Below are positions 3,454 to 31,025 of a DNA stretch of 64,000 nt, in pieces. The stretch comes from an uncultured Actinomycetota bacterium (GTDB taxonomy: Bacteria; Actinomycetota; Acidimicrobiia; Acidimicrobiales; SZUA-35): assembly GCA_963732695.1 (NCBI GenBank), contig CAVTAP010000026.1, positions 268,388-332,387 of the forward strand, in the 5' to 3' direction. The notes beneath the pieces are model-generated. The model did not search any database. It saw only the letters and a program-made list of their open reading frames with translations, and was not told the origin of the DNA. The position numbers were made by a program, and so were the translations under genes. Numbering within the stretch: position 1 is the first letter of the stretch; each line of letters starts with the position of its first letter.

Positions 3454-3544
3454 GGGGGCGCCTGCCCCCGAAGGAGCCGGCCCGAAGGGCCGGGCGACGG
3501 GGTTGGGGCCCCGGCGCAGTTGGGGTCCGGGGGCGCCAGCCCCC
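3454..3544. repeat. solo diverged copy of the GC-hairpin repeat that is tandemly amplified at 63781-64000
   Basis: GGGGGCGCCTGCCCCC (3454-3469) ... CGGCCCGAAGGGCCG ... GGGGTTGGGGCCCC (3499-3512) ... GGGGGCGCCAGCCCCC (3529-3544). The module order is the same as in the right-edge repeat unit. Confidence 0.6.
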
Positions 3545-3551
3545 GAAAAAC

Positions 3552-9165: not shown

Positions 9166-9298
9166 CCCCCTGGCTCAGACCTCGTGGGCTCAACGCTAAC
9201 CCTCACGCCTCGCCGGGGGCGAGGCCGCAGCGGCGATAGGTTCTATGACATCTCGCAGTGGCCCGAGGTGGGGGAGTGGGCGAGATACCGTGTCACCG

Positions 9299-10393
9299 AT
9301 GCGTGTTCTCGTCACCGGAGGTCTCGGGTTCATCGGCTCGGCCCTGGTCCGCCGCCTGATCGCCGCCACCGACCACGAGGTCCTGAACCTCGATCGGGTC
9401 TCGTACTCCTCGTCGTTCGAGTCGGTGGCGGCCGCCGCCGAGAGCCCCCGCTACCGCTTCGCCCAGGTCGACCTGGCCGACGCCGCCACCGTCGACGACG
9501 TGGTGGCCGGCTTCGACCCCCACCGGATCATGCACCTGGCCGCCGAGTCCCACGTCGACCGCTCGATCGACGGGCCCCGGGCCTTCGTGGAGTCGAACAT
9601 CGTGGGTACGGCCAACCTGTTGGAAGCGGCCCGCCGGGCCACCAGCCTCCAGCGGTTCCTCCACATCTCCACCGACGAGGTGTTCGGCTCCCTCCCCCTC
9701 GACGGCGGCCACTTCACCGAGGACACCCCCTACGATCCCCGCTCGCCCTACTCCGCCTCCAAGGCCTCGGCCGACCATCTGGTGCGGGCCTGGGGGGAAA
9801 CCTTCGGCCTGCCGGTGGTGATCACCAACTGCTCCAACAACTACGGCCCCTACCAGTTCCCCGAGAAGCTGATCCCGCTGCTCACGATCAAGGCGGCCCA
9901 GGGTGAGCCGCTGCCGGTGTACGGGGCCGGGGTGAACGTGCGCGACTGGCTCCACGTCGACGACCACGTGACCGCCCTGCTGGCGGCGGTGGAGCGGGGC
10001 GAGGTGGGCCGCAGCTACAACGTGGGCGGGGGCGGCGAACGGTCGAACCTGGCCATGGTGCACGGGATCTGCGACGCCGTGGACCGCCGCCTGGGCCCCC
10101 TGCCCGGGGGCGGCTCCCGGCGGGCGCTGGTGACCTACGTGACCGACCGCCCCGGCCACGACCTCCGCTACGCCATCGACTCGTCCCGCATCCGGGCCGA
10201 GCTGGGTTGGGCCCCGGCCCACAACATCGACGACGGACTGGCCGACACCGTGGGGTGGTATCTCGACAACGAGGTTTGGTGGGGCCCCCTGCTCAGCCGC
10301 ACCGGCGGCGGGGCCCGGGTGGGCCTGGGCGCGGCGGCCGCCGACCCCGTTCCGGGCGGAGCCGCCGGCGACGGTGGGGGAGCCGGCCGGTGA
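9299..10393 (+). CDS. rfbB: dTDP-glucose 4,6-dehydratase
   Basis: ATG at 9299 gives [20 protein letters not shown] (Rossmann GxxGxxG), then [12 protein letters not shown] and [12 protein letters not shown] (YxxxK). A Gly/Ala-rich C-terminal tail of about 35 aa overlaps the rfbA start. Confidence 0.9.
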
Positions 10394-11310
10394 CGGCCAA
10401 GGGCATCGTGCTGGCCGGCGGCACCGGCAGCCGCCTGCACCCGATCACGCTCGGCGTGTCGAAACAGCTCCTGCCGGTCTACGACAAACCCATGGTCTAC
10501 TATCCGCTGTCGGTCCTCATGCTGGCCGGCATCCGGGACATCCTGGTCATCACCACCCCCGACGACGAGACCGCCTTCCGTCGGGTGCTGGGCACCGGCC
10601 GGCAGTGGGGCATCGACATCAGCTACGCCACCCAGCCCCGGCCCGAGGGCATCACCCAGGCCTTCCTCATCGGCGAGGAGTTCGTGGCCGGCCGCAGCTG
10701 CGCCCTGGTGCTGGGCGACAACATCTTCTACGGCCACGGCTTCGGCGGCCTGGTGCGGGAGGCGGCGGCCGAGCCGGCCGGGGCCACCGTGTTCGCCCAG
10801 CACGTGACCGACCCCGCCCGCTACGCCGTGGCCGAGCTCGACGACAGCGGCCGACCCCGCTCGATCGTGGAGAAGCCCGAGCGTCCCCGCTCGTCGTGGG
10901 CCGTCACCGGCCTCTACTTCTACGACGACCAGGTGACCCGCCTGGCCCACGAGGTCAAGCCGTCGGCCCGGGGCGAGCTGGAGATCACAGCCCTCAACCA
11001 GCTCTACCTCGACCTCGGCCAGCTCCGGGTGGTGCGCCTGTGGCGGGGCCACACCTGGTTCGACACCGGCACGATCGACTCGATGGTGGAGGCGGCCGAG
11101 TTCGTCCGCATCATCGACAAGCGCCAGGGCCAGAAGATCGCCGCCCTGGAGGAGATCGCCTTCCGCAAGGGCTGGATCACGGCCGACGAGCTGGCCGAGC
11201 TGGCCCGCCCCCTGGAGAGCTCGGGCTACGGCGCCTACCTCCGCCGGGTGCTGGAGCTGGCCGAGGAGACCGCAGCCGAGACCGCCGCCATGCAGGAGCC
11301 CCGCACATGA
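10390..11310 (+). CDS. rfbA: glucose-1-phosphate thymidylyltransferase
   Basis: GTG at 10390 overlaps the rfbB stop (GTGA). The product begins [57 protein letters not shown], the canonical RmlA signature. Confidence 0.9.
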
Positions 11311-12482
11311 CCGCGCCCGCCGCAGCCCAACCCGCCGACGTACCGGCGGCGGGCCCCATCCCCTTCAACCGGGCCACGGTGGCCCCCCGCCAGCTCGCCT
11401 ACCTGGAGCAGAGCTCCCGGTCGGGGCAGCTGGCGGGCGACGGGCCCTTCGGGGCGGCGGCCACCAAGGAGCTGTCGGGCCTCCACAACGGGGCTCCGGT
11501 GCTGCTCACCCCGTCGTGCACGGCGGCCCTGGAGCTGAGCGCCCTCCTGCTCGACCTCCAGCCGGGCGACGAGGTGATCGTCCCCAGCTTCACGTTCTCC
11601 TCCACCGCCGGGGCCTTCGCCCTGATGGGGGCGCGGATCGTGTTCGCCGACATCGACCCCGTCACCCTCGGCATCGACGCCGCCCAGGTGGCCCAGCTCA
11701 TCACCGACCGGACCCGGGCCATCGTGCCCGTCCACTACGGCGGCGTGCCCACCCCGCCCGGGCTGCGGGCCCTGGCCGACCGCCACGGCCTGCTCCTGAT
11801 CGAGGACAACGCCCACGGCCTCTACGGCTCGCTCGACGGTCAGGCCCTCGGCACCTTCGGCCACCTGTCCACCCTCAGCTTCCACAACACGAAGAACATC
11901 ACCTGCGGCGAGGGCGGGGCCCTGGTGGTCAACGACCCGGCCCTGCACGAGCGGGCCGAGGTCCTGCGGGAGAAGGGCACCGACCGGGCCCGCTTCTTCC
12001 GGGGCATGGTGGACAAGTACTCCTGGGTCGACGTGGGCTCCAGCTACCTGCTGAGCGACCTCAACGCCGCCATGCTGCTGGCCCAGCTCGAGTTCGGGGC
12101 CGAGATCCAGGCCCGGCGCCAGGCGGCGTGGGAGCACTACCGGGCCGTGGTGGGCCCGGCGGCCGAGGCCCGGGGGGCCACGGTGTTCGAGCCCGGCCCC
12201 GGCGTGGTCAACGCCTATCACCTGTTCGTGCTGCTCCTGCCCAGCCTGGAGGCCCGTACCGCCCTGCTGGGGGCGGCCCAGGAGCAGGGGGTCGGCTGCA
12301 CCTTCCACTACGTGCCCCTGCACTCGTCGGCTGCCGGGCGCAAGGCCGGCACCGCCCCGCTGGGCTGTCCCGTCACCGACTCGGTCAGCGACCGCCTGAT
12401 CCGCCTGCCCCTGTTCTCCGACATCGGCCCGGCCGACTACGAGCGGGTGGCCGAGGTGATGGTCCGCCTGCTGGCCGGCTGA
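11307..12482 (+). CDS. DegT/DnrJ/EryC1/StrS (WecE-type) dTDP-4-keto-6-deoxyhexose 4-aminotransferase
   Basis: ATG at 11307 overlaps the rfbA stop (ATGA). Motifs: [57 protein letters not shown] (PLP lysine region). Confidence 0.9.
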
Positions 12483-14324
12483 TCAGCCAGTTTCGAGCTC
12501 GATCTTGTCGACGGTGATCGGCTGCACGCCGCCGGTGGCGGTGCGCAGCTCCCACACCTGGCCTCCCGTGGTCACCTCGAAGTGGATCACGGCTTCGGCC
12601 GGCGCCTCGGCCGTGGCCACCAGGTCCACCTCCGCCACCTCGCCGGGGGCGGCGCTGAAGGCGTCGAACCGGCCGACGACACCCTGGGCGCCGTCGGCGC
12701 GGTAGCTGACCGTGGCGGTGTAGGAGCCCGGCCCAAGCTGGACGTAGGGCCCGAAGGTCACGAAGCCGGAGCCGGAGTCGGGCAAGGTGACCATGTCGTC
12801 GCCCTCCGGCTCACCCACCTGGGTGGGCAGCTCGGACGCCTCGAAGGTGAGCGGCAGCCGGGGCGAGGGGCGGAGCGGGATCACCACCAGCCGGTAGCCG
12901 AGGCCACCGTCGTGGGTCTCGTCGAGCACCGGCGGCTCGAGGCCGAGGCCGGCCAGGGGACCGTCGAGCTGGCGTTCCACGTCGTCCGGGATTCCGAGCA
13001 TGACCAGCCAGGACCGGGAGTTGGCCAGTAGCGCGTAGCGGTCGAAGGTGCGGAGTTGCCGGGTGTCGGGGGCCACGCTGAGCAGCCGGGCCCCGAGATG
13101 GGCGTCGTAGATGCCGGTGATGGTGGAGGCCCAGCCGCTGACGGGGAAGAACAGGGCGTTGCTGCCGTCGGCCACCCCGTCGACCTCGCGTTCGAGCCAC
13201 CGGGCCTCGTCGTACACCGCCTCCGACTCGTGGCCGTCGCCCCAGAACAGGTGGTCGTAGCGGGGGCTCAGGTTGTAAGGGTGGTAGGCCGACGGGTCGT
13301 AGTTGGGGGCGCCGATCTGCAACCACAGCGTGTAGGTGGCCAGCATTGCCAACGCCCCCAGGGGGTGGTGGCGGATGACGAAGGCCAGCACCGCCACCAC
13401 GACGATCGACACCAGGCCGAACTCGATCCCCGACGGCAGGCGCAGCCCGTCGGGCACGCCGACCAGCAGGGCGGCCACCCACAGCCCCACCCCGATCGCC
13501 GCCCGGCGGAGGCTGATACCGGTGGCCAGCCGGCCGGTCACCAGGGCGAAGGCGATGCCCAAGGTGCAGAACGACATCGACCAGTAGTAGGAGATCTCCA
13601 GCCCGCTGCCGTTGCGCCCGAACTGGTCGAGCCAGTGGAGCCCGTAGTGGGCGCCGGCCATCCCCACCGCGAGCCACTCGGTCCGGTCGAGCTTCAGCGG
13701 CGACAGCAGCGAGGTGAGGGCGGCGGCGGCGATTACCAACGGGGGCAGGAACAACCAGGTGAAATGGGTGAGCCACTCGATGTTGGGCGACTTGAGGGGA
13801 TCTGGCCCGGGCGGGTTGCGGATGAAGGTGATGGTGGGCTCGTAGATGTTGTCGATGCCGTAGGCCCAGCGGAAATACAGGTAACCGGCGACCACGGTGC
13901 ATGCCGCCGCTAGCACCACGATTGTGGTGAAGACGGCCCGACGCCACAGGCCCCGGGGCGAGAAAAGCCGTCCGTCCACTCCGACCAGGGCCATGACCGC
14001 CAGCGGGGGGAGGGTGGCAGAGACGGCGAACGGGTTCGCCACGGCCATCAGGGCGGCCAGCACCCCGGCCCCCACCGCCGTGCGCCAGTCGTGGCGACGG
14101 GGCCGCAGGGCCAGCAGGGTCAGTGCCATCCCCAGCACCAGGACCGTCCACTCCACGTAGTCGGTCATCAACGGGCGGATGAACATGGGCAGCGTGATCA
14201 GGAGCGTCGAGGCGATCAGGCGCTGGCCCCACGACCAGGCGGGGCGGATCCGCCACAGACCGAGGAGCAGCGCCGCCACCACCACCAGCCGGAGCAGGAG
14301 GCGGCCAACGAACGGCCCGGCCAC
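12483..14324 (-). CDS. polytopic GT-C-like membrane protein with an extracytoplasmic C-terminal beta-rich domain
   Basis: 613-aa ORF (GTG start) with many hydrophobic spans over the first ~400 aa and a soluble C-terminal ~200 aa (GFVTFGPYVQLGPGSYTATVSYRADG). It lies in the sugar locus next to a GtrB-type GT2. The family assignment is inferred from architecture only. Confidence 0.6.
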   Translation of the reverse strand: MAGPFVGRLLLRLVVVAALLLGLWRIRPAWSWGQRLIASTLLITLPMFIRPLMTDYVEWTVLVLGMALTLLALRPRRHDWRTAVGAGVLAALMAVANPFAVSATLPPLAVMALVGVDGRLFSPRGLWRRAVFTTIVVLAAACTVVAGYLYFRWAYGIDNIYEPTITFIRNPPGPDPLKSPNIEWLTHFTWLFLPPLVIAAAALTSLLSPLKLDRTEWLAVGMAGAHYGLHWLDQFGRNGSGLEISYYWSMSFCTLGIAFALVTGRLATGISLRRAAIGVGLWVAALLVGVPDGLRLPSGIEFGLVSIVVVAVLAFVIRHHPLGALAMLATYTLWLQIGAPNYDPSAYHPYNLSPRYDHLFWGDGHESEAVYDEARWLEREVDGVADGSNALFFPVSGWASTITGIYDAHLGARLLSVAPDTRQLRTFDRYALLANSRSWLVMLGIPDDVERQLDGPLAGLGLEPPVLDETHDGGLGYRLVVIPLRPSPRLPLTFEASELPTQVGEPEGDDMVTLPDSGSGFVTFGPYVQLGPGSYTATVSYRADGAQGVVGRFDAFSAAPGEVAEVDLVATAEAPAEAVIHFEVTTGGQVWELRTATGGVQPITVDKIELETG

Positions 14325-14635
14325 CGCGTTCGCCAGGAACAGGGGATACCAGGCTCGACCACCGGCTGATCGAGTAGTGGTGGGCCCCGACCACCGAGGC
14401 GTCGTCGAAGTTCACGCCCGAGCGCGCTGTAGAAGATCGGATCGAGGCCGTTGGGGGCGAGGCCGTAGGTCTCGGGCTGGGTCACGAGGAACAGTGCCAG
14501 CGGCAGCCCCAGAGCTACCGCCACCCGCTGGAGCCACCCGTCGCGCCCGGGATGCCCGGGGCTCCGGGTTCCGACACCGGAGCCGGCGCCGGGACCAGAA
14601 CGTCGGTCATAATCCGCCTGCCGGGGGCCGGCCAT
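14325..14635 (-). pseudogene. possible frameshifted 5-prime extension of the GT-C-like gene
   Basis: Coding-looking pieces occur in two other frames. One is ...VAVALGLPLALFLVTQPETYGLAPNGLDPIFYSA (ORF 14216..14635). The next is VNFDDASVVGAHHYSISRWSSL (ORF 12811..14415). The main frame then resumes as WYPLFLANAVAGPFVG. Together they read as one membrane-protein N-terminus broken near 14413-14430 and 14344-14356. Confidence 0.45.
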
Positions 14636-15281
14636 CGGCGGCCCCCACCGAGGCCGCCGGGCGGGCCTCGATGAGGAGGTGGGAGTAGGGGACCCGCAGG
14701 AGGTCGCCGTACACCTCGCTCGACACGTGGGGCAGGGCGGTGCCCAGCAGGGCGGCGTAGCCGGCGGCGTCGCGCACGTAGCGGCCCCGGTCGGATGCGA
14801 TCAGGAGGCGGGCGGTGAGCCGCTGGTCGGGGTCGAACACCGGCTCCAGGGCAACGAACCGGCCCTTCTCGGTGAGCAGCGGCGCCACCTGGGCGGCCAG
14901 GGTGCGGACCTGGCCGTCGTCGAGGTGGTGGAGCACACCACCCAGGAAGATGAGGTCGTACGGGCCCCGTTCGGCCACCACCGGGTCGCTCACGTCGGCG
15001 CAGATGAACTCGGGGGCCAGCTCGCCGTGGCCCAGGTGGGCGTTGCGGCGGCGGGCCGTCTCCAGGTAGCCGGGATTGTGGTCGATCCCCAGGTAGCGGC
15101 AGCGGCCGGCGAACCAGGGGGCGTAGTCGCCGTAGCCGCAGCCCAGGTCGAGCACGCTGGCCCCGTCCTCGGCGGCGAACATCTCCTCGGTGATCCGCCG
15201 CAGCGACGCCGGCGGCAGCAGCAGGTTCTTGAACGCCTTGTACACCAGGGTCTGCGACAGCAGCCGTTCCCGGATCGTCAT
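14607..15281 (-). CDS. class I SAM-dependent methyltransferase
   Basis: ATG at 15281 overlaps the GT2 stop (ATGA). The product begins MTIRERLL and has SAM motif I VLDLGCGYGDY and LIFLGGVLHHLDD. Confidence 0.85.
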   Translation of the reverse strand: MTIRERLLSQTLVYKAFKNLLLPPASLRRITEEMFAAEDGASVLDLGCGYGDYAPWFAGRCRYLGIDHNPGYLETARRRNAHLGHGELAPEFICADVSDPVVAERGPYDLIFLGGVLHHLDDGQVRTLAAQVAPLLTEKGRFVALEPVFDPDQRLTARLLIASDRGRYVRDAAGYAALLGTALPHVSSEVYGDLLRVPYSHLLIEARPAASVGAADGRPPAGGL

Positions 15282-16342
15282 CGATTCGCTCCCACGCTCT
15301 GGCCCGGGTCGGCGGCGGCCTGCGCCGGGCCGCCCGGATCGGGTCCGGCCCCGGGGCCGGTGGTCGGCTTGGTCATGGCCCGCACCACGTAGGGGGGCTT
15401 CCCCATGGTGCGGAAGTGCATGCGCCCGATGTACTCGCCCACCACGCCCAGGCTGAGCAGCTGCACGCCGGAGAACAGGCTGAGGGCGGCGGCCAGGAAG
15501 GTGAACCCGGCAACGTGTCGCCCGTTCAAGAGGTACGACAGCATCACGAAGGCCAGCAGGGCGAAGCCGAGCACCGCGATCAGCAGACCGAAGGCGCTGA
15601 CCCAACGCAGGGGCCGGGTGCTGTAGCCGGTGATCATGTTGAGGGCGTGGCGCACCAGCTTCTTCAGCGTGTAGCCGCTCTGGCCGGCTTCCCGCTCCCG
15701 GAACCGCACCGGCACGTCGGTGACTCGGCTGGTGGCCCAGCTCAACAGCACATCGATCGAGATGTAGGGGTCGCTCACGGTGTCGGCGGCGCTCACCAGC
15801 TCCCGGCGGAACAGCCGGAAGGCGCTGGGCCGGGGGTAGACGTCGGGCCCCAGGGCGGTGGCCATGGTGCGCTTGGTGGCGGTGGAGGCCAGGTTGCGCC
15901 ACCAGCTCTGGCGCTCCTCGGTGGGGGTGCCGTACACCAGGTCGACGTCGTCGGTGAGAGCGGCCAGCAGGGTGGGCACCTGGTCGGGCGGGTTCTGCAG
16001 GTCGTCGTCGATCGTGAGGATCAGGGGCAGGCGGGCCTGGCGGAGCCCGGCCAGCAGCGCGTTGTGCTGGCCGTAGTTGCGCAGCAGCGTGAGACCACGC
16101 ACCCAGGGGTGGCGGGCCGCCAGCTCCTGGATCGAGGCCCACGTGCCGTCGCCGCTGCCGTCGTCGACGAAGATGACTTCCAGCTCGGCCACCAGTGGGG
16201 CCACGTGGAGCTGGAGCTCGTCGCACACGCGGCCCAGGGTGCCGGGCGACCGGTAGGCCGGGATGACGACCGACAGGCCGGGACGGATGGAAGGGCCGGG
16301 CTGGCTCACGCCGGAGGTACCCCCAGAACGGGTTCGAGGCAC
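15278..16342 (-). CDS. GT2 polyprenyl-phosphate glycosyltransferase (GtrB/ArnC/DPM1-like)
   Basis: 354-aa ORF with LSVVIPAYRSPGTL, EVIFVDDGSGDGT, LILTIDDDLQNPP (DxD), and two C-terminal TM helices (LRWVSAFGLLIAVLGFALLAFV; FTFLAAALSLFSGVQLLSLGVV). Confidence 0.85.
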   Translation of the reverse strand: MPRTRSGGTSGVSQPGPSIRPGLSVVIPAYRSPGTLGRVCDELQLHVAPLVAELEVIFVDDGSGDGTWASIQELAARHPWVRGLTLLRNYGQHNALLAGLRQARLPLILTIDDDLQNPPDQVPTLLAALTDDVDLVYGTPTEERQSWWRNLASTATKRTMATALGPDVYPRPSAFRLFRRELVSAADTVSDPYISIDVLLSWATSRVTDVPVRFREREAGQSGYTLKKLVRHALNMITGYSTRPLRWVSAFGLLIAVLGFALLAFVMLSYLLNGRHVAGFTFLAAALSLFSGVQLLSLGVVGEYIGRMHFRTMGKPPYVVRAMTKPTTGPGAGPDPGGPAQAAADPGQSVGANR

Positions 16343-16429
16343 AGGGTTCGGACCGCCCCAAGACTAGTGGCTGGTCTGCCCACTGACGCGGCGCCAGTCG
16401 CGCGGGGGTGGGCCGTTACGATCTATCCG

Positions 16430-16873
16430 ATGTCCCCCGCCCCGCCCGACGCTTCTGCCCCCTCCGGCGCGCCCGCGCCCGGCGCAGCTGTGCTGGGTCC
16501 GGTCCACCACGTCGGTGTGGCCTGCCGGGATCTGGAGGCGGCCCGGCGCTGGGTGCACGCCACCCACACCGTGCTGGAAGACTCCGGCGTGATCTACGAC
16601 CCCCACCAGAAGGCCGACCTGTGCCTGCTCACGGTGGAGGGTGGGGCCAACATCGAGCTGGTGGCCGGGGAGGCCGTGGCCAGCCTGGTGAAGAAGGGCC
16701 ACACCTACTATCACCTGTGCTACGAGGTCCCGTCGGTGGCCGACGCCATCACCGGCCTCCAGGCCCACCAGTGCCTCGTGGTGTCACCCCCCGCCCCGGC
16801 CGTGCTGTTCGGGGGGCGCACCGTGGCCTTCCTCTACGGCCCCACCGGGCTGGTCGAGCTGCTGGAGACGTGA
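16430..16873 (+). CDS. VOC (glyoxalase / methylmalonyl-CoA-epimerase-like) family protein
   Basis: ATG at 16430. The 147-aa product has LGPVHHVGVACRDLEAARRW ... IELVAGE ... YHLCYEV, a paired beta-alpha-beta-beta-beta module pattern. Confidence 0.7.
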   Translation: MSPAPPDASAPSGAPAPGAAVLGPVHHVGVACRDLEAARRWVHATHTVLEDSGVIYDPHQKADLCLLTVEGGANIELVAGEAVASLVKKGHTYYHLCYEVPSVADAITGLQAHQCLVVSPPAPAVLFGGRTVAFLYGPTGLVELLET

Positions 16874-18546
16874 TGCGCATCGTCGTCGTGTCGAACACCA
16901 CGATGGACCCCCTGGCCCGCAACCTGGAGGGCGACGAGGTGGTGGTGAGCGGGGTCGGAGACCTGATTCCGTGGTTGATCGATCCGTCGTCGCCGGCGGC
17001 CGATCCGGCCACCGGGCTCGTGCTCGTCTGCCCCGACGGCGATTCGCTGGTGCCGCCCCTGGCCGACGACTCCTCGCTGCTGGACGAGGGCTCCTCGTCG
17101 TTCCTCGAGGAGCTTCTCGGCCACGTCGACGGGTTCGCCGGTCGCCACCCCGGCACCCCGGTGGCGGTCACCACCCTCCTGCTCGACTCCCGGGGCCCGC
17201 TGGCCCACGCCGACGCCACCAACCCCGGCGGCCGGTTCGCCGCCCGGGCCCGATGGGAGGCGGGGCTGGCCGAGATCGCGGCCGACCGCCCCAACGTGAA
17301 CGTGGTCGACCTGCGGGGCCTGGCCGAGCGCCACGGGGCGGCCGCCCTGGTGAACGACAGCTACTGGTACCTGGGCCGCATCCGGTTCTCCGCCCTCGGA
17401 TTCAGCGCCTTGGCCGAGGAGTTGGACGTGCTGCGCCGGGGTCTGGCCAACCAGGCCCGCAAGGTGCTCGTGCTCGATCTCGACAACACCCTGTGGGGTG
17501 GCGTGGTGGGCGAAGACGGCCTGGGCGGGATCCGCCTGGGCGAAGACGGCCCGGCCAAGTGCTACCGGGACTTCCAGCGTCACGTGAAGGCCCTGCGGGA
17601 GGCCGGCACCCTGCTCGCCGTGGTGTCGAAGAACGACCCCGAGATCGTCGACGAGGTGTTCGACACCCACCCGATGATGGTGCTCGAGCGAGACGACATC
17701 GTGGCCATCAGCGCCGACTGGACCGACAAGGCCACCCGCATCGCCACCCTGGCCGACACCCTCGACCTCGGGCTCGACGCCTTCGTGTTCATCGACGACA
17801 ACCCGGTGGAGCGGGAGCTGGTGCGCACCGCCCTGCCGGCGGTGGCCGTGCCCGAGTTCCCCGACCGGGTGGAGCGCCTGCCCCGGTGGTTCGCCGAGGA
17901 GGTGGTGCCGGCCTTCTTCCCCCGGGCCCGGGTGCTCGACGAGGACCGCAACAAGACCAGGCAGTACCAGGCCCGCCAGGCCCGGCGGCAGGTGGAGACG
18001 GCCGACCTGGCCACCTTCCTGGCCACCCTCGACATCCGGCTCACCTTCCGGGCCGACGACGACACGCTGGTGCCCCGGGTCAGCCAGCTCACCCAGAAGA
18101 CCAACCAGTTCAACCTCACCACCGAGCGGCTGTCGACCACCGAGGTGCAGGCCCTGATGGCCTCGGCCGACCACGCCGTGGTGGCCTGCGACTACGCCGA
18201 CCGCTTCGGCGACGAGGGCACGATCGGGGTGGCCTTCGTCGACGTGGCCCGGGGCGAGCTGAGCAACCTGATGCTGAGCTGCCGGGTGCTGGGGCGGGGG
18301 GTGGAGGACGCCCTGCTGGGCGAGGTGGCCCGACGGGCGGCCGAGCGGGGCCACGACCGGCTCCGGGCCCGGTTCCTGCCCACCGCCCGCAACGGGGTGG
18401 CGGCCGGGTTCCTGGAGCGCAACGGCTTCGCCATGGAGCCGGCCGGCGACGGGCTGGCGGGAGAGAAGGCCCTGGCCGGAGAGATACAGCTCAGCGGCGC
18501 CGCTGCCGCCGAGGATGCAAAGGAGCACAGTGACCGTGTCCGTTGA
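16873..18546 (+). CDS. FkbH-like HAD-IIIC phosphatase/loader with a C-terminal GNAT-like domain
   Basis: ATG at 16873 overlaps the VOC stop (TGATG). The HAD-IIIC core is KVLVLDLDNTLWGGVVGEDGLGGIRLGE ... LLAVVSKNDPEIV ... FIDDNPVERE. The C-terminal part reads VACDYADRFGDEGTIGVAFV. Confidence 0.85.
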   Translation: MRIVVVSNTTMDPLARNLEGDEVVVSGVGDLIPWLIDPSSPAADPATGLVLVCPDGDSLVPPLADDSSLLDEGSSSFLEELLGHVDGFAGRHPGTPVAVTTLLLDSRGPLAHADATNPGGRFAARARWEAGLAEIAADRPNVNVVDLRGLAERHGAAALVNDSYWYLGRIRFSALGFSALAEELDVLRRGLANQARKVLVLDLDNTLWGGVVGEDGLGGIRLGEDGPAKCYRDFQRHVKALREAGTLLAVVSKNDPEIVDEVFDTHPMMVLERDDIVAISADWTDKATRIATLADTLDLGLDAFVFIDDNPVERELVRTALPAVAVPEFPDRVERLPRWFAEEVVPAFFPRARVLDEDRNKTRQYQARQARRQVETADLATFLATLDIRLTFRADDDTLVPRVSQLTQKTNQFNLTTERLSTTEVQALMASADHAVVACDYADRFGDEGTIGVAFVDVARGELSNLMLSCRVLGRGVEDALLGEVARRAAERGHDRLRARFLPTARNGVAAGFLERNGFAMEPAGDGLAGEKALAGEIQLSGAAAAEDAKEHSDRVR

Positions 18547-18769
18547 TGTGGCCGACGTACTGGCCGTGATCACCACCGAGCTCGATCTGGACGAGGGCGA
18601 GGTGACGGCCGACAGCACGATCGACGACGTGGAGAACTGGGACTCGCTGGGCCACCTGCGGGTGTGCATGGCGCTGGAGCAGCGTTTCGGGGTGAAGATC
18701 CCGATGGAGGACATCGCCGACCTCCGTTCGGTGCCGGCCATCGTGGCCAAGCTGTCAGCCTCCGCCTAG
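18515..18769 (+). CDS. acyl carrier protein
   Basis: 79-84 aa with ENWDSLGHLRVCMALEQRFG (DSL phosphopantetheine site). An AAGGAG at 18520-18525 favours the in-frame GTG at 18530 as the real start. Confidence 0.8.
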   Translation: MQRSTVTVSVDVADVLAVITTELDLDEGEVTADSTIDDVENWDSLGHLRVCMALEQRFGVKIPMEDIADLRSVPAIVAKLSASA

Positions 18770-19467
18770 TGGCTGCCGCTTCCGTCTCCGCCCCCGCCGG
18801 CGGAACCGGTGGGTCCGGCGCGCCCGGCACCGTCTACAGCGAGGCCGAGCTGGCCGACCTGGGCTTCGCCTCGCTCGGGCACGACGTGCGCATCGACCGG
18901 CGGGCCGCCCTGTTCGGCGTCCCGTCGATCCACGTGGGGTCCCATGTGCGGATCGACTGCTTCGCCGTGATCACGGCCGGGCCGGCCGAGGTGCACATCG
19001 GGTCCTACACCCACGTCGCCCCCCACACCTACCTGTCGGGGTCGCAGGGCGGGATCAACCTCGGATACGGGGCCGGTCTGGCCCCGTTCGCCGCCCTGTA
19101 CTCGGCGGTGGAGGACTACACGGCCGGGCACCTGACCAACCCCAGCGTGCCGCCCGACCTGCGGGGCCAGACGGTGGGCCTGATCGACATCGCCCCCCAC
19201 GCCGCCGTCGGGTCGTCCAGCGTGGTGCTGGCCGGGATGAGGGTGGGGTTCGCCGCGGCCGTGGGCGCGCTGAGCCTCGTCACCCGCCGGGTCCGGCCGT
19301 TCGAGATCGTGCACGGCAACCCGATCCGGCGCACCGGGATGCGGGTGCAGGACAAGCTGTTGGAGCTCGACGCCGAGCTGCGGGCCCGGGCCGAAGCCGA
19401 GGGCATCGTGCTGCCGGCCCACGATCAGAGGCCCGGGGCCGGGCCGGCCGACGGGAGTGGGGTATGA
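18769..19467 (+). CDS. left-handed beta-helix (hexapeptide-repeat) acyltransferase
   Basis: GTG at 18769 overlaps the ACP stop (TAGTG). Imperfect hexapeptide periodicity runs through HDVRIDRRAALFG...IHVGSHVRIDCFAVI...VHIGSYTHVAPHTYL...IDIAPHAAVGSSSVVLAGMRVG. Confidence 0.7.
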   Translation: MAAASVSAPAGGTGGSGAPGTVYSEAELADLGFASLGHDVRIDRRAALFGVPSIHVGSHVRIDCFAVITAGPAEVHIGSYTHVAPHTYLSGSQGGINLGYGAGLAPFAALYSAVEDYTAGHLTNPSVPPDLRGQTVGLIDIAPHAAVGSSSVVLAGMRVGFAAAVGALSLVTRRVRPFEIVHGNPIRRTGMRVQDKLLELDAELRARAEAEGIVLPAHDQRPGAGPADGSGV

Positions 19468-20357
19468 GGGTCGCCGCCTTTCACGCCAGCCGTTGCCTGC
19501 CCGACGGCGATCTCGGCCCGGTGCGGACCGGGTGCCTGTGGTGCGGGAGCACCGACGTGCGCCGGGTGGCCGTGGTCCAGGTCGAGCCCGAGGTGGAGCT
19601 GCGCCGGTGCCGGGGCTGTGCCGCCTCCTCGGTGTCGCGCCTGCCCACCCCCGAGGCCCTCGACCACTACTACGGCTCCTACTACGAGGGCGACGCCGAT
19701 CACGCCGTCACCATGGACGACCCCACCCGGCTGGCCGCCCGCATCGCCGGCTACGCCCCGGGCGGGCGGCACCTGCGGGTGCTCGACCTGGGTGGGGGTG
19801 ACGGCACGATTTCGGCCGAGGTGCTTCGGGTCCGCCGCGCCGCCGGCGAGGTGACGGTGGTCGACTACGACCATCGGCGTACGGCCCAGCTGCCGGTCGG
19901 GGTGACGATCGGACACGTGACCGAGCTGGCCGACGTGCCGGCCGATGCCTCGTTCGACCTGGTGTTGGCGAGCGCCGTGCTGGAGCACCTGCCGGAGCCG
20001 GCACCGGTGCTGAAGGGTCTGCTGACCCGGGTGGCGCCGGGCGGCACGTTCTACGCTCGGGCCCCGTTCGTCGAACCGTTCCTGGCCGTCGGCCGCCGGT
20101 TGGGCATGACGATCGACTTCACCTTTCCCGCTCATCTGTCCGACCTGGGCCCGGCCTTCTGGGACGGCCTGGGGGCGTGGGAGCCCGAGGTGAAGCGGTT
20201 CGACGTGCTGGCGTCGCGCCCCTCCCCGGTGGAGACGAGCCTGCGTCAGCGTCCGGCCCGCACTCTGGTGGCGACGGCGGCCAAGGCCCCGTGGCACGTG
20301 GTGAAGGGGTGGCCATTCGTCGGCGGCTGGGAGTGGGCCGCCCGGGCCACCCGCTGA
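19464..20357 (+). CDS. class I SAM-dependent methyltransferase with an N-terminal Cys4 zinc-ribbon
   Basis: 297-aa ORF with CLWCGS...CRGC, then VLDLGGGDGTIS (motif I) and LVLASAVLEHLPEP. Confidence 0.8.
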   Translation: MRVAAFHASRCLPDGDLGPVRTGCLWCGSTDVRRVAVVQVEPEVELRRCRGCAASSVSRLPTPEALDHYYGSYYEGDADHAVTMDDPTRLAARIAGYAPGGRHLRVLDLGGGDGTISAEVLRVRRAAGEVTVVDYDHRRTAQLPVGVTIGHVTELADVPADASFDLVLASAVLEHLPEPAPVLKGLLTRVAPGGTFYARAPFVEPFLAVGRRLGMTIDFTFPAHLSDLGPAFWDGLGAWEPEVKRFDVLASRPSPVETSLRQRPARTLVATAAKAPWHVVKGWPFVGGWEWAARATR

Positions 20358-20369
20358 CCCCCGTTTCAG

Positions 20370-20417
20370 AATCTCCTCATGGGCGGTCTCACCGGTGAGA
20401 CTCCTCATGAGGAGATT
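20370..20417. repeat. intergenic palindromic element, family I copy D (core GTCTCACCGGTGAGAC)
   Basis: AATCTCCTCATGGGCGGTCTCACC|GGTGAGACTCCTCATGAGGAGATT. The 24-nt arms pair 21/24 Watson-Crick plus 2 G-T. It sits between convergent gene ends, and the flippase-like ORF stop (20389) lies inside it. Confidence 0.85.
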
Positions 20418-21705
20418 TCGAAAGCGGCTGCTTGGAGGAACCGCCGGCATACGAGCGGTCCGGGGGCGACTGGCCGGTGAGGGCCACCAGCATCACGGCG
20501 TGGAGGGCGAGGAGGCCGGCGGCGGTGGCCCGCAGGTCGGTGAGGCCGGTGGCCAGGCCGGCGCCGACGGCCACTATGAGCAGGGCCAGCCACCGGGTCA
20601 CGAGGAAGCGGTTGGCCCCCCGGGCCACCAGCAGCACGGTGGCGAAGGAGTCGCCCACCGAGCACACGCCGGCCGCGGCGAACAGGCCGTAGGTGACGGG
20701 GTCGACCCGGCCCCTGATGTCGAACAGGGTGCCGATGAACAGATCGCCGAGCAGGGCGCCGGCCCCGAAGGCGACGGCGGCCACCGACGCCGTGCCGGCC
20801 AGGATGGCCAGGCGGGCCCGGTCGAGCAGATCCTGGCGGCCGGTTTCGACCCACCCGTGGAAGGCGACCCCGGCCCGGGGGGCGCCGGCCTGCAGCACCA
20901 GGTGGGGCAGGCGGATGGCGGTGAGCACCACGAACAGGGTGGACACGGTGCGGGCCGAGCCCCCGTTCACCGCCACGAGGAGGGGCGGGCCGGCCAGGGC
21001 AACGTGGGACAGGAACCCGGCCACCGCCGCCGTGCCCAGCGTCGCCGTCCCGGGGTCGGCGGTGTCTTCGCCCGCTCCGTGGGCCACGGCGGGTGTCGGA
21101 TCGGGGGCCGCGGCCGGGTGGCGAGCGGGGAGCCAGCCGACGGCCAGCACCAGGTAGCTGGCCAGGTGGGCCACGGCGTACCAGCCGACGGTGGCCCCGG
21201 CCGCCACCAGCACGATGGCCAGCACCATGCGGACCACGTTGTCGCCCGCGATCACCAGGGCCAGGAGGCTGTGGCGCCCGGTGGCGGCCAGTTGGCCCCG
21301 CACCACGCCCCCCGCCACCGTGCCCAGCACCACCACCGCCGCCGCCACCGGCCAGAACAGGCTGGCGGTGTGGAACAGGCTCGATCGCACGGCCAGCGTG
21401 ACCAGGCCGGTGCCCACGGTGGAGGCCGCCAGCAGCCCGGCCGGGGCACCCCGCAGGGCGCTCACCAGCCCGATCCGGCGGCCGACGCCGATGCGGATGG
21501 CCCACTGCTGGTAGGCGAAGAGCAGGGTGGCGGCGCTGATCGACCAGATCGTCCACAGCTGGGCCATGGGGGCGAAGGCGTCGAGCCCGACCGCCCGCTC
21601 GCTGATCAGGATGAACGAGGCCCCGGCGACCCCGGTGAGCCCGGAGGCGATCAACAGCTGGAGGTCGGCGGCGAGGCGCCCTCGTCGGCCCATCCGGTCG
21701 ATCAT
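20389..21705 (-). CDS. polytopic membrane protein, oligosaccharide flippase-like (MOP/Wzx-type) candidate
   Basis: I prefer ATG at 21705 (MIDRMGRRG) over the ORF-track start at 21837. About 12-14 hydrophobic spans, positioned at the end of the glycan locus. The family call rests on architecture and context only. Confidence 0.55.
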   Translation of the reverse strand: MIDRMGRRGRLAADLQLLIASGLTGVAGASFILISERAVGLDAFAPMAQLWTIWSISAATLLFAYQQWAIRIGVGRRIGLVSALRGAPAGLLAASTVGTGLVTLAVRSSLFHTASLFWPVAAAVVVLGTVAGGVVRGQLAATGRHSLLALVIAGDNVVRMVLAIVLVAAGATVGWYAVAHLASYLVLAVGWLPARHPAAAPDPTPAVAHGAGEDTADPGTATLGTAAVAGFLSHVALAGPPLLVAVNGGSARTVSTLFVVLTAIRLPHLVLQAGAPRAGVAFHGWVETGRQDLLDRARLAILAGTASVAAVAFGAGALLGDLFIGTLFDIRGRVDPVTYGLFAAAGVCSVGDSFATVLLVARGANRFLVTRWLALLIVAVGAGLATGLTDLRATAAGLLALHAVMLVALTGQSPPDRSYAGGSSKQPLSKSPHEESHR

Positions 21706-26547: not shown

Positions 26548-26949
26548 ATGAGCGACGTCGCACAGCAACTACCCCTGGTGAACTATCTCGTGCTGGGGGA
26601 GACCCCGCACCTCGTCGCCCAGGAGTGCACCTCCTGCGGCGCCCGGTTCTTCGACCGGCGCAACGCCTGTGCCTCGTGCTTCAAGACCGAGTTCCGCACG
26701 GTCGACATCCCCAACGAGGGTGAGCTGCGGGCCTTCACGATCGTGTCCCAGGCCGGACCGGGCATCAAGGTGCCGTTCGTGGCCGCCGTGGTGGACTGCG
26801 GGGGTACCAGCGTGCGGGGCAACATCATCAACACCGAGCCCGACCCCGAGCACGTGACGCTCGGCATGGCCGTGCGGCTCGCCACCTACTCGATGGGCAC
26901 CGACGACAACGGCACCGAAGCCGTCGGCTTCGGCTACGAACCGGCCTGA
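26548..26949 (+). CDS. Zn-ribbon/OB-fold protein (DUF35 family), thiolase partner
   Basis: ATG at 26548. The product has CTSCGARFFDRRNACASC (rubredoxin-like zinc ribbon) followed by an OB fold, and sits immediately upstream of an SCP-x-type thiolase as is usual for DUF35. Confidence 0.85.
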   Translation: MSDVAQQLPLVNYLVLGETPHLVAQECTSCGARFFDRRNACASCFKTEFRTVDIPNEGELRAFTIVSQAGPGIKVPFVAAVVDCGGTSVRGNIINTEPDPEHVTLGMAVRLATYSMGTDDNGTEAVGFGYEPA

Positions 26950-26972
26950 ACAATCGCCAGAAGGAGAATGCC

Positions 26973-28181: not shown

Positions 28182-28197
28182 TCTCCGCCACCCAACG

Positions 28198-28259
28198 ATT
28201 CTGAGGAGCCTGACGTGCGCAAGCGCCTGCGCTCAGCGCGCCTCAGGCTCCTGATTTCG
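28198..28259. repeat. intergenic palindromic element, family II copy B
   Basis: gATTCTGAGGAGCCTGA-cgtgcgcaagcgc-CTGCGCTCAGCGC-g-CCTCAGGCTCCTGATTTCG. There is a 10-bp perfect outer stem (28204-28213 with 28243-28252) and the same core as copies A and C. Confidence 0.8.
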
Positions 28260-28293
28260 CGACTGTGACCACACAACCCGAGGGGGACGTGAC

Positions 28294-29190: not shown

Positions 29191-29261
29191 ACCCGAGCCC
29201 GACCTGCTCTAGCCAGCTCCCGGCCACCCCGAGCGAAGCGTGCCCGGGGCCGGGGCGGAAC

Positions 29262-30056: not shown

Positions 30057-30078
30057 GGTGGCCGATCCTAGGCAGACG

Positions 30079-30216
30079 GGCCGCCCAGGTTCGAATGGGC
30101 GGCCGCTCTCGTTCTCGGTGCTCACCACGCCACCGGCGGCGCCTCGTGCACCGAGATCAGGCCGCCAGGAATCTCGGTGCGCAGGCCACCACCGACGGTT
30201 CGCTCCGCACCGAGAA
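30079..30216. repeat. cluster of three hairpins in a 200-nt intergenic gap (one 9-bp hairpin plus two tandem hairpins with identical stems)
   Basis: GGCCGCCCA-ggttcgaa-TGGGCGGCC (30079-30104). TCTCGGTGC (30113-30121) pairs with GCACCGAGA (30148-30156). TCTCGGTGC (30172-30180) pairs with GCACCGAGA (30208-30216). Both loops are 26 nt and the period is 59 nt. Confidence 0.8.
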
Positions 30217-30256
30217 ACCGCCGGGGCCGGCGGAGCCAGCCGACGTTGACGGGCGC

Positions 30257-30994: not shown

Positions 30995-31025
30995 GGCATC
31001 GGTCCTTCGTCTCGAGCGTCCGGTC

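Follow-up and report, generated by a model that had tools for sequence, protein, structure and literature searches.

An FkbH-like loader and a dedicated acyl carrier protein in a plausible N-acylation cassette for a 4-amino sugar

What does a loader of the type known from antibiotic synthesis do in a sugar locus? The glyceryl-ACP loaders of the FkbH, OzmB, ZmaN and Tmn16 type serve polyketide, tetronate and zwittermicin pathways (PMC7489565). In the window (the whole 64,000-nucleotide stretch of actinomycetotal DNA that was analysed), five genes at 16430-20357 encode a VOC protein, a 557-residue FkbH-domain protein, an acyl carrier protein (ACP), a left-handed β-helix (LbH) acyltransferase and a CxxC...CxxC methyltransferase. 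The original prediction read them as an ACP-dependent route to an N-acylated aminosugar and held that the chemistry of FkbH/ACP cassettes in glycan loci is not established, which is still the case within the searchable literature. The sequence-based checks it proposed all favour its reading. We give somewhat better than even credence to the view that these genes form the half that supplies and transfers the acyl group in a self-contained cassette, whose product, an N-acylated 4-amino-4,6-dideoxyhexose, becomes linked to a polymer of the cell envelope. FkbH and its carrier protein would here apparently supply a glycolysis-derived C3 acyl group for the N-acylation of a rare aminosugar, and the cassette may explain the origin of "glyceroyl" decorations on bacterial surface sugars.

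Organization of the cassette

All five open reading frames occupy the frame of highest third-position GC (GC3 0.89-0.95) and are translationally coupled. The VOC stop and FkbH start share TGATG at 16871-16875, the ACP gene already begins ahead of the FkbH stop at 18546, the end of the ACP gene and the beginning of the LbH gene overlap in TAGTG at 18767-18771, and the LbH and methyltransferase genes meet in ATGA at 19464-19467; the tight coupling and the junctions originally predicted are thus borne out. These five genes sit within a larger 12-gene ArnC-like/GT-C decoration cassette (9290-21705), whose other members encode RmlA, RmlB, a WecE-type aminotransferase, an ArnC-like GT2, a GT-C enzyme, a further methyltransferase and a membrane protein. 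Unlike FkbH-type PKS systems, and as anticipated, the cassette holds no ketosynthase, PKS or FkbI/FkbK-type dehydrogenase, nor a FabH-like enzyme. The nearest thiolase (26973-28181) lies past an MFS transporter and a two-component system, in an unrelated catabolic block.

Supply of the sugar acceptor

The neighbouring genes first recognized as rfbB, rfbA and a transaminase have clear profile matches, all on the forward strand. RmlB, a dTDP-glucose 4,6-dehydratase (9290..10393, +), matches TIGR01181 at 447.5 bits (cut-off 365) and PF16363; an alternative start lies at ATG 9245. RmlA, a glucose-1-phosphate thymidylyltransferase (10390..11310, +), matches TIGR01207 at 436 bits (cut-off 361). The WecE-type aminotransferase (11307..12482, +) matches NF008687 at 451 bits (cut-off 375), with WecE itself (4piw) as its best PDB match at E 1e-105. 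From these equivalog-level assignments, RmlA and RmlB would generate dTDP-4-keto-6-deoxyglucose, and the aminotransferase is predicted to convert it into dTDP-4-amino-4,6-dideoxy-D-galactose (dTDP-Fuc4N). With WecE called at equivalog level, this galacto isomer is the probable acceptor.

The FkbH-like loader and its carrier protein

The FkbH-like protein (16873..18546, +) comprises an N-domain, an HAD-IIIC phosphatase domain and a GNAT-fold acyl-transfer domain bearing Cys470. It scores 278.5 bits against TIGR01686 (cut-off 146.65) and 69.5 bits against the HAD-IIIC profile TIGR01681. In its AlphaFold model (pLDDT 84), the N-domain and HAD domain match 3slr (Foldseek E 4.7e-23), and the C-terminal part has a GNAT fold, with many GNATs among the matches; the GNAT-like tail predicted earlier is therefore well founded. 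Cys470 ends a β strand and immediately precedes the RxxGRG loop.

An alignment with a tetronate-type FkbH and with ZmaN, the FkbH homologue of the zwittermicin cluster, shows no variation at D202/D204/T206, K286, D308/D309 and C470. The catalytic Cys and Asp residues, whose presence the original prediction depended on, are thus retained, and C470 is the sole conserved cysteine in the alignment with ZmaN. HAD motifs I-IV, the TNQFNLT motif and the S-C470-R motif remain invariant when glycan-type homologues are compared as well. The TIGR01686 domain, HAD motifs, conserved cysteine, TNQFNLT motif and adjacent stand-alone ACP gene are common to the FkbH/OzmB/ZmaN/Tmn16-type loaders, and an N-terminal extension is shared with the tetronate-type enzymes.

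The dedicated ACP (18530..18769, +; PF00550, E 2e-9) carries the DSL serine in a WDSLGH motif. An alternative start exists at ATG 18515, but the AAGGAG Shine-Dalgarno sequence at 18520-18525 points to initiation at GTG 18530 or 18536, giving a protein of 77-79 residues in line with homologues of 76-78 residues. Of 80 diverse genomes over which FkbH neighbourhoods were counted, 71 have an ACP gene at most 1 kb from the FkbH-like gene.

From the characterised FkbH enzymes and the conserved residues we infer glyceryl loading, and with it the identity of the acyl group. The FkbH-like protein would take 1,3-bisphosphoglycerate from glycolysis, and its HAD domain would strip the 3-phosphate. The glyceryl group would then be held on Cys470 of the GNAT-fold domain before its transfer to the phosphopantetheine arm of the ACP.

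Identity to ZmaN and the tetronate-type glyceryl loaders is just 26-33%, so the enzyme may accept another phospho-acid. The pathway might then run as proposed with a non-glycerate loaded by FkbH, or with glyceryl-ACP altered by the VOC protein (for instance by dehydration to pyruvoyl), and the N-acyl group would be neither glyceroyl nor methylglyceroyl. The breadth of the FkbH family (16,877 clusters at 50% identity) makes substrate diversity likely, the VOC role is a prediction, and related loci hold extra tailoring genes for radical SAM enzymes, a sulfotransferase and a CmcI-type methyltransferase. Nevertheless, 35 columns do not vary among PKS-type and glycan-type members, both acyl-transfer-domain motifs being covered, and natural aminosugars fit the predicted product. 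A different acyl group thus strikes us as distinctly improbable.

N-glyceroyl and di-O-methylglyceroyl aminosugars occur in Tannerella forsythia and Campylobacter jejuni, and according to a 2018 paper the gene behind the N-glyceroyl aminosugar "remains elusive". In the C. jejuni flagellin glycosylation locus, the fkbH-domain gene cj1302 adjoins the 'epimerase' gene cj1301. Both di-O-methylglyceroyl pseudaminic acid of C. jejuni and Pse5Am7Gra of T. forsythia bear a glyceroyl-type N-acyl group, as predicted here, although their sugar is a nonulosonic acid rather than a 6-deoxyhexose and the nucleotide carrier differs too. The cj1298-cj1304 region also carries ACP, methyltransferase and acetyltransferase genes.

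N-acyl transfer and the acyl donor

The LbH enzyme (18769..19467, +) matches Hexapep weakly; its best solved relative is AntD (3vbi-3vbp; E 8e-29, 31% identity over 182 residues), with the next family at 4.5e-7. AntD is an N-acyltransferase of a dTDP-4-amino-4,6-dideoxyhexose, which places the protein away from the ordinary O-acetyltransferases that the original prediction had named as an alternative. Homologues carry the JGI name dTDP-4-amino-4,6-dideoxy-D-glucose acyltransferase, and all five of the more distant AntD-like homologues examined adjoin a DegT aminotransferase. The N-acyltransferase role is well supported.

As in the anthrose pathway of Bacillus cereus/anthracis (AntA-D), a protein with full-length similarity to AntD follows RmlA/RmlB and a DegT enzyme. 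AntD N-acylates dTDP-4-amino-4,6-dideoxyglucose with a short hydroxyacyl group, and the anthrose sugar is also methylated. Its donor is 3-hydroxy-3-methylbutyryl-CoA, whereas here ACP and FkbH would replace the CoA supply. The gluco configuration of the AntD substrate, set against the galacto configuration of the WecE product, counts against the proposal.

AntD reportedly works with a CoA thioester, and AntD-like homologues of 38-48% identity (L087-L090) adjoin DegT with neither FkbH nor ACP, which suggests CoA as the default donor of the family. The LbH enzyme could accordingly be an ordinary acyl-CoA N-acyltransferase, probably using acetyl-CoA to form dTDP-Fuc4NAc, while FkbH, ACP, VOC and methyltransferase make a separate O-acyl or small-molecule product delivered by an enzyme elsewhere. 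In S. meliloti the FkbH/ACP pair accompanies an MBOAT rather than an N-acyltransferase, so such a pair can serve other acceptors. We consider this reading unlikely: the LbH start overlaps the ACP stop, and the cassette holds no other acyltransferase able to unload the ACP. LbH homologues of at least 56% identity are consistently co-located with FkbH homologues (apparently on the same contig in ten cases), the two genes being directly adjacent in L001 and L091, and 49/80 genomes have a gene for an LbH or GNAT protein no more than 5 kb from the FkbH-like gene. From this gene coupling we infer that the ACP is the acyl donor, from which the LbH enzyme would move the acyl group onto the 4-amino group of the dTDP-sugar; in contrast to FkbH-type PKS systems, the acyl-ACP here apparently feeds a sugar N-acyltransferase.

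RfbK-O of Vibrio cholerae O1 (tetronate on perosamine) and the flagellin viosamine genes of Pseudomonas are genetic precedents for ACP-dependent N-acylation of 4-amino sugars. There, too, the N-acyl group on a 4-amino-4,6-dideoxyhexose comes from a dedicated ACP encoded among glycan genes, but the loaders are of the acyl-AMP ligase, LuxE/LuxC or FabH/FabG type, all absent here. Given these precedents, the new element is the FkbH loader and not the use of an ACP. Related ACP cassettes have been described (PMC4875605, PMC7874193).

The VOC protein and the methyltransferases

The VOC/epimerase-like assignment agrees with matches to PF13669 (E 2e-12) and to the glyoxalase I structures 3hdp/2qh0 (E 2e-12). 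The protein (16430..16873, +) is a metal-dependent member resembling glyoxalase I and methylmalonyl-CoA epimerase, and its metal tetrad H27/E76/H95/E143, together with C97, is kept in at least 98% of 43 FkbH-linked homologues. It is predicted to be a C2 epimerase of the ACP-bound 2-hydroxyacyl group, acting on glyceryl-S-ACP via a metal-bound enediolate.

A single uninterrupted reading frame in L091 fuses an RmlB-like dehydratase to this VOC domain, hinting that the substrate may instead be a keto-sugar. The VOC protein would then be an epimerase or 3,4-ketoisomerase of dTDP-4-keto-6-deoxyglucose, again via an enediolate, with the rest of the pathway unchanged. VOC genes, which 39 of the 80 genomes have no farther than 5 kb from the FkbH-like gene, also track DegT (22/25 vs 17/55 across 80 loci; Fisher p 2e-6, uncorrected for phylogeny). 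Against this, VOC directly adjoins FkbH across differing sugar scaffolds, including the Pse pathway of L063, and occurs in the MBOAT locus, which has no aminosugar genes. Moreover, 9-10 of 23 well-flanked VOC-containing loci have it beside FkbH/ACP with neither DegT nor dehydratase, and an equivalog-level WecE accepts the unmodified 4-keto sugar. Action on the nucleotide sugar is therefore doubtful in our view, and we favour the acyl-ACP as the likelier substrate.

The last of the five genes (19464..20357, +; PF13489, E 3.5e-12) encodes a SAM methyltransferase whose predicted N-terminal zinc ribbon is confirmed by two CxxC motifs, CLWC...CRGC, read from the sequence at residues 24-27 and 49-52. 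It is kept in L001 (366 bits) and L033 (203 bits). A class I SAM methyltransferase of 224 residues (14607..15281, -; PF13649, E 2e-15) is kept in the syntenic L001. For the zinc-ribbon enzyme the prediction is O-methylation of either the acyl group or the sugar; one or both methyltransferases would carry this out. Epimerisation by VOC and O-methylation form the weakest step of the proposed pathway.

Export and attachment

An ArnC/GtrB-like GT2 (15278..16309, -; PF00535), a predicted polyprenyl-phosphate glycosyltransferase, has two C-terminal TM helices; its best NCBIfam matches, ArnC (174 bits) and PgfS (157 bits), are both under cut-off. Close to it lies a GT-C-fold membrane glycosyltransferase gene (12483..14635, -), whose product has about 10 predicted TM helices and a soluble C-terminal domain with a CBM6/35-like module, and falls in no Pfam family. 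The model of a 60% identical homologue, P0135 (pLDDT 85, pTM 0.82), matches AftD at E 1.9e-6, as well as ALG9, AftA and CBM6/35. Near 14416 and 14352 the 5' part of the gene is interrupted by what look like two 1-nt frameshifts; these may be indel errors of the assembly, or else the export arm may be defective here. A multi-pass membrane protein of 438 residues (20389..21705, -; about 11 predicted TM helices; kept in L001 at 344 bits) has no Pfam, NCBIfam or PDB match and is a candidate flippase by position and topology.

Judging by fold and family, the GT2 would place the acylated sugar on polyprenyl phosphate, the sugar would then be flipped to the other side of the membrane, with the 438-residue protein as a possible flippase, and the GT-C enzyme would add it to an extracytoplasmic glycan. 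This resembles the Arn pathway (ArnC/ArnT) and Gtr-type three-component glycosylation, with a GT2 nearest ArnC beside a GT-C. As in Arn, the substrate would be an N-acylated 4-amino sugar, but a dTDP-6-deoxyhexose instead of UDP-Ara4FN; the CBM-like tail of the GT-C, its place outside Pfam families and a flippase that is a candidate also set the cassette apart.

Distribution

L001, a relative whose FkbH protein is 68% identical, preserves synteny across the entire cassette. The FkbH-ACP-acyltransferase-DegT combination, for which the original prediction had proposed a neighbourhood survey, is present in other phyla. A Lachnospiraceae locus (L056) reads FkbH-VOC-AntD-like LbH-DegT-GT2-Wzx and a gammaproteobacterial one (L022) DegT-LbH-VOC-FkbH-ACP-MT-MT-GT2, while L033 (Acidobacteriota) has a related arrangement. 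It is plausible that the cassette is a widespread N-acylation route for 4-amino sugars. In L063, FkbH-ACP-VOC is embedded in a Pse-type locus.

Gene organization of the core cassette

Five genes at 16430-20357, part of a 12-gene block at 9290-21705, encode a VOC protein, an FkbH-like protein of 557 aa, an acyl carrier protein (ACP), a left-handed beta-helix (LbH) acyltransferase and a 297-aa methyltransferase. Given the G+C content of ~72% in the window, reading frames were picked by third-position GC (GC3), and all five ORFs appear real, each lying in the GC3-maximal frame (GC3 0.89-0.95). The tight coupling proposed for these genes is borne out at every junction, with TGATG at 16871-16875, overlapping FkbH and ACP reading frames up to 18546, TAGTG at 18767-18771 and ATGA at 19464-19467. 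Profile searches, GC3 frames and the reading of the junctions together confirm the five-gene arrangement of the original prediction. The partner ACP is thus encoded next to FkbH, and its gene overlaps the FkbH stop codon. A strong Shine-Dalgarno motif, AAGGAG, is found at 18520-18525, inside the FkbH gene at its 3′ end, with in-frame GTG codons 4 and 10 nt downstream, so the ACP probably starts at GTG 18530 or 18536 rather than at ATG 18515. Its product matches the PP-binding profile (E 2e-9) and carries the serine motif WDSL. A scan for promoters and terminators returned nothing exceeding background.

The probable sugar acceptor and the LbH acyltransferase

The adjacent genes had been read as a dTDP-aminosugar pathway, and RmlB, RmlA and the WecE-type aminotransferase all score above NCBIfam cut-offs. 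The aminotransferase reaches 451 bits against NF008687, the dTDP-4-amino-4,6-dideoxygalactose transaminase equivalog (cut-off 375), and 399 against TIGR02379, under its cut-off of 435; it also matches WecE structures (PDB 4piw) at E 1e-105. The cassette contains no 3,4-ketoisomerase gene. Because WecE is assigned at equivalog level, RmlA and RmlB are present and a ketoisomerase is absent, the acceptor is most likely dTDP-Fuc4N, as judged from sequence.

The LbH protein gives a weak hexapeptide-repeat profile match. Among solved structures it is closest to AntD of B. cereus (entries 3vbi-3vbp), aligned over residues 19-204 at 31% identity (E 8e-29). AntD N-acylates dTDP-4-amino-4,6-dideoxyglucose with a hydroxyacyl-CoA as donor. 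The next structural family is CatB (CatB8), at E 4.5e-7. Several LbH homologues are named 'dTDP-4-amino-4,6-dideoxy-D-glucose acyltransferase' by JGI, and entries 3vbi-3vbp are identified as AntD in the literature (PMC6031040). An ordinary O-acetyltransferase, the alternative raised at the outset, was rejected, as the LbH protein resembles AntD far more than it does CatB (CatB8), Vat or WbbJ.

Genomic context couples LbH to a DegT aminotransferase and a 4,6-dehydratase. They share one cassette in the window and in L001, the locus of a relative whose FkbH is 68% identical, and they adjoin AntD-like LbH genes in six further loci (L056 and L087-L091). LbH homologues of at least 56% identity come, in ten cases, from contigs equal in length to those of FkbH homologues, and the two genes lie side by side in L001 and L091. 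Four homologues of 38-48% identity all adjoin DegT, none with FkbH or ACP. These more distant relatives indicate that the family as a whole consists of aminosugar N-acyltransferases, probably with a CoA thioester as default donor, just a subset of which is wired to FkbH/ACP. For the window LbH, gene context suggests acyl-ACP, not acyl-CoA, as the donor.

The FkbH-like protein

No Pfam model matches the FkbH-like protein, even at E≤10, and with Pfam silent it was assigned via NCBIfam, PDB and structure prediction. It scores 278.5 bits against TIGR01686 (cut-off 146.65) over residues 195-522 and also matches HAD-IIIC. A characterised reference was found by tblastn against plasmids: on pBMB422 of B. 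thuringiensis, a 359-aa HAD-IIIC gene is flanked by an ABC exporter gene and by NRPS genes, with NRPS/PKS and flavin-dependent oxidoreductase (LLM class) genes further upstream. Since this neighbourhood matches the gene order of the zwittermicin cluster, we take the gene to be ZmaN. A tetronate-type FkbH on a Streptomyces plasmid (L006), adjoining a FabH-like gene and an ACP, provided a second reference.

An alignment of seven sequences that includes both references has 35 invariant columns. These contain the HAD motifs (DxDxT, S/T, K, DD) at D202, D204, T206, S252-K253-N254, K286 and D308-D309, together with N411-Q412-x-N414-x-T416 and S469-C470-R471, and the same residues are unchanged across 25 glycan-type homologues. 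The catalytic Cys and Asp residues of FkbH, on which the original prediction had hinged, are therefore all invariant on alignment. The AlphaFold model (mean pLDDT 84) matches 3slr, a crystal structure covering the N-terminal part of BF1531 from B. fragilis, at E 4.7e-23. Over its C-terminal 150 residues, it resembles dozens of GNAT acetyltransferases (target-normalised TM-score 0.6-0.76), so the predicted GNAT-like tail is real. In the model, a beta-strand of this GNAT-fold domain ends in C470, directly ahead of the RxxGRG loop, which in GNAT proteins binds the pantetheine pyrophosphate. In OzmB, a conserved Cys of the C-terminal acyl-transfer domain reportedly carries the S-glyceryl intermediate, and C470 is presumably its counterpart. 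Conservation and the OzmB work thus support a putative catalytic role for C470. Identity to characterised loaders is only 26-33%; glycerate is the presumed substrate, and the acyl group could differ from it.

Neighbourhoods of FkbH-like genes

The FkbH-like family comprises 16,877 clusters at 50% identity (E≤1e-3), and 8,471 at E≤1e-30. Eighty loci were surveyed in species-representative genomes from many bacterial phyla and some archaea; among the matches listed, a scan of genome contigs gave relatives of at most 43% identity. Neighbours were counted with iterated profiles built on the window proteins. An ACP lies within 1 kb of the FkbH-like gene in 71 of the 80 loci, an LbH or GNAT acyltransferase within 5 kb in 49, and a VOC homologue within 5 kb in 39, while a DegT aminotransferase is found anywhere in the fetched locus (~10 kb) in 25. 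The neighbourhood survey suggested at the outset thus finds FkbH, ACP and acyltransferase together with DegT in other phyla, and on other sugar scaffolds too.

Individual loci vary the theme. A gammaproteobacterium (L022) has the order DegT-LbH-VOC-FkbH-ACP-methyltransferase-CmcI methyltransferase-GT2, and an acidobacterial locus (L033; Acidobacteriota) contains a WecE-like DegT, a GNAT, FkbH, a homologue of the 297-aa methyltransferase and an ArnC-like GT2. In an Acetivibrio MAG (L063:870-8248), the series NeuB-GNAT-ACP-FkbH-VOC-PseG-like-DegT-dehydratase represents a pseudaminic acid (Pse) pathway, and its layout is the one to be expected for N-glyceroyl-Pse. A Lachnospiraceae MAG (L056) carries FkbH-VOC-AntD-like LbH-DegT-GT2-Wzx. 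Two radical SAM/SPASM genes (L056:6955-9755) stand immediately upstream of its FkbH-VOC-LbH-DegT block and hint that the acyl group or the sugar is tailored further.

On pSymB of S. meliloti (L005; CP140934.1 1032067-1037948), the order is VOC, MBOAT, 'TonB-dependent receptor', ACP and a 628-aa FkbH-like protein, a few kb from the rkp capsule export genes. This resembles a system of the Dlt style, with FkbH in place of the D-alanine ligase as the supplier of the MBOAT. By this resemblance, the FkbH/ACP pair could also serve extracytoplasmic O-acylation. Full-length FkbH-like homologues of 30-37% identity also occur in archaeal MAGs (L066, L067, L072, L076 and L083) of Thorarchaeota, Promethearchaeota, Nitrosotenuis and Nitrosopumilales, some of them with ACP and VOC neighbours.

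The VOC protein and the methyltransferases

The VOC protein matches the Glyoxalase_4 profile (E 2e-12), and its closest solved relatives are glyoxalase I structures from Clostridium acetobutylicum (E 2e-12); its best NCBIfam match, under cut-off, is methylmalonyl-CoA epimerase. The metal tetrad H27/E76/H95/E143 and Cys97 are kept in at least 98% of 43 FkbH-linked VOC homologues. Both glyoxalase I and methylmalonyl-CoA epimerase shift a proton at the carbon beside a thioester or hemithioacetal through a metal-bound enediolate. Given this shared chemistry, epimerisation at C2 of a 2-hydroxyacyl-S-ACP would be chemically natural for the VOC protein.

The VOC protein may instead act on a keto-sugar. 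In locus L091, a single uninterrupted ORF (L091:1108-2472) fuses an RmlB-like 4,6-dehydratase to an FkbH-associated VOC domain, directly upstream of FkbH-ACP-AntD-like LbH-GT2-DegT-LytR_cpsA_psr. The presence of VOC also tracks that of DegT across the 80 loci (Fisher p 2e-6, not corrected for phylogeny). However, VOC stands beside FkbH/ACP in the Pse locus and in the S. meliloti MBOAT locus, which is devoid of aminosugar genes, and DegT and dehydratase are both absent from 9-10 of the 23 well-flanked loci that contain VOC. Action on the acyl-ACP is on this evidence the likelier role, though only slightly so at best.

The core methyltransferase belongs to class I and has an N-terminus with CLWC...CRGC. 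A second methyltransferase is encoded on the opposite strand, beside the ArnC/PgfS-like GT2 and a large membrane protein lacking a Pfam match. An O-methylation step catalysed by either gene product is conceivable.

The proposed export arm

The GT2 scores 174 bits against ArnC and 157 against PgfS, both under the equivalog cut-offs, and has two C-terminal TM helices at 239-290, like the GtrB/ArnC-type GT2 of three-component glycosylation systems (polyprenyl-P GT2, flippase and GT-C). At E≤10, Pfam yields no match for the large membrane protein or for the 438-aa membrane protein. The family of the former has 36 detectable members only, all from Acidimicrobiales-like sources. The model of a 60%-identical homologue (P0135; pLDDT 85, pTM 0.82) matches AftD (E 1.9e-6), ALG9 (1.7e-4) and AftA (6e-4) with TM-scores of just 0.34-0.47, and ends in a CBM6/35-like beta sandwich. 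On the basis of this homologue, the large membrane protein is predicted to be a GT-C fold transferase. The 5′ part of its gene in the window is split over three frames (14327-14434, minus strand). FYSALG (frame a), VNFDDASVVGAHHYSISRWSS (frame b) and WYPLFLANAVAGPF (frame c) line up jointly with a single unbroken segment of homologues, P0135 for example, so that 1-nt insertions must lie at two places, near 14416 (in a run of GGG) and 14352 (CC). Either the assembly has indel errors here or the gene is a pseudogene; in the public annotation, the called gene (613 aa) begins past both frameshifts.

The 438-aa protein, last of the block, has 11 predicted TM helices and is by position and topology a candidate for the flippase of such a system (GtrA, Wzx or ArnE/F type). 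It has no family match in Pfam, NCBIfam or PDB and no similarity to the Wzx of the Lachnospiraceae locus, leaving a Wzx flippase assignment without sequence support.

Relation to known systems and proposed pathway

FkbH enzymes are known to load glyceryl onto an ACP on the way to methoxymalonyl extender units and to tetronates (PMC7489565). The methoxymalonyl-ACP pathway (FkbG/H/I/J/K) includes acyl-ACP and 3-hydroxyacyl dehydrogenases of the FkbI and FkbK types (PMC7489565), whereas no dehydrogenase is encoded in 9290-21705. Similarly, the tetronate 'glycerate utilisation operon' places a FabH-like enzyme by FkbH/ACP, as on the Streptomyces plasmid, in contrast to the cassette, where it is absent. 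With both kinds of enzyme missing, the window FkbH is a family member outside both known pathways. A polyketide or tetronate reading was rejected, given the lack of a KS or FabH-like gene and the synteny with sugar genes; the predicted absence of PKS, ketosynthase and FkbI/K-type dehydrogenase holds throughout 9290-21705.

Glycan loci containing an ACP are already known, with precedents in RfbK-O of V. cholerae O1 and the viosamine genes of Pseudomonas. Those loci use ligase, LuxE or FabH-type loaders, in contrast to the FkbH of the window. Natural glyceroyl aminosugars include Pse5Am7Gra of T. forsythia and di-O-methylglyceroyl-Pse of C. jejuni, whose locus is reported to have the fkbH-domain gene cj1302 beside the 'epimerase' gene cj1301. 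The accessible literature states that the genes making N-glyceroyl or methylglyceroyl groups are unknown. A search of this mostly open-access literature found no paper tying FkbH to glycan acylation, and the published account of M. kansasii LOS leaves FkbH and ACP unmentioned. In the literature searched, the chemistry of FkbH/ACP in glycan loci is thus not established, as had been supposed.

In the proposed pathway, dTDP-Fuc4N would be made by cassette enzymes with equivalog-level family assignments. FkbH would charge the ACP with a C3 acyl group derived from glycerate, as its catalytic residues and ACP partner suggest, and this group might then be epimerised by VOC and O-methylated. The AntD-like LbH would N-acylate the 4-amino group, a well-supported step; translational coupling, the lack of another acyltransferase and clade-level co-occurrence point to the ACP as its donor. 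From fold and family, the ArnC-like GT2 would transfer the sugar to polyprenyl phosphate and, after flipping, the GT-C/CBM protein would add it to an envelope glycan. Every in-silico test available supports the originally predicted N-acylation scheme as a whole, as far as computation on sequences and models can.

The system is a new combination of known enzyme kinds, is widespread, and makes the origin of N-glyceroyl sugars testable. The cassette offers a concrete five-protein hypothesis in which every part is soluble and small. In pathogens, immunodominant sugars of the surface carry N-glyceroyl and methylated glyceroyl groups, as on C. jejuni flagellin and in the S-layer glycan of T. forsythia. 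If the scheme is right, glyceryl-ACP has a third fate besides methoxymalonyl extender units and tetronates, and the cassette holds an acyl-ACP-dependent sugar N-acyltransferase and possibly a new VOC epimerase. It could then become possible to re-annotate thousands of genes that are called 'HAD-IIIC family phosphatase' in polysaccharide loci (at E≤1e-30 there are 8,471 clusters), and glycoengineering would gain tools for N-acyl variants of rare aminosugars.

A broader and more tentative reading, to which we give a little less than an even chance, is that FkbH/ACP pairs mainly divert glycolytic 1,3-bisphosphoglycerate to surface glycans, very widely and across phyla, archaea included, rather than to polyketides. 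VOC would here be a dedicated glyceryl-ACP 2-epimerase, and AntD-like LbH, other LbH, GNAT and MBOAT acyltransferases would have been recruited independently as users of the acyl-ACP. If true, this would fill a long-standing gap in the genetics of N-glyceroyl and O-methylglyceroyl aminosugars, Pse5Am7Gra and the C. jejuni flagellin glycan among them, and define a clade of sugar N-acyltransferases whose donor has switched from CoA to ACP.

Genomic setting of the cassette

The 12-gene block enclosing the five core genes has an amidohydrolase gene at one border and, at the opposite one, an MFS transporter with a two-component system. Membership of protein clusters points to an Acidimicrobiales MAG as its source. 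L001, from a MAG, contains all 12 genes in the same order between other flanks, and the block is on this account a mobile, self-contained unit. The flanks in the window (426-6017 and 26548-31895) are catabolic and unrelated to the glycan cassette. They encode a ChsH2-like OB-fold/zinc-ribbon protein with a thiolase-like protein, 3-hydroxyisobutyrate dehydrogenase, an SDR, enoyl-CoA hydratase, luciferase-like monooxygenases, a Rieske oxygenase and an 821-aa double family III CoA-transferase. The cassette looks like an insertion between these catabolic flanks.
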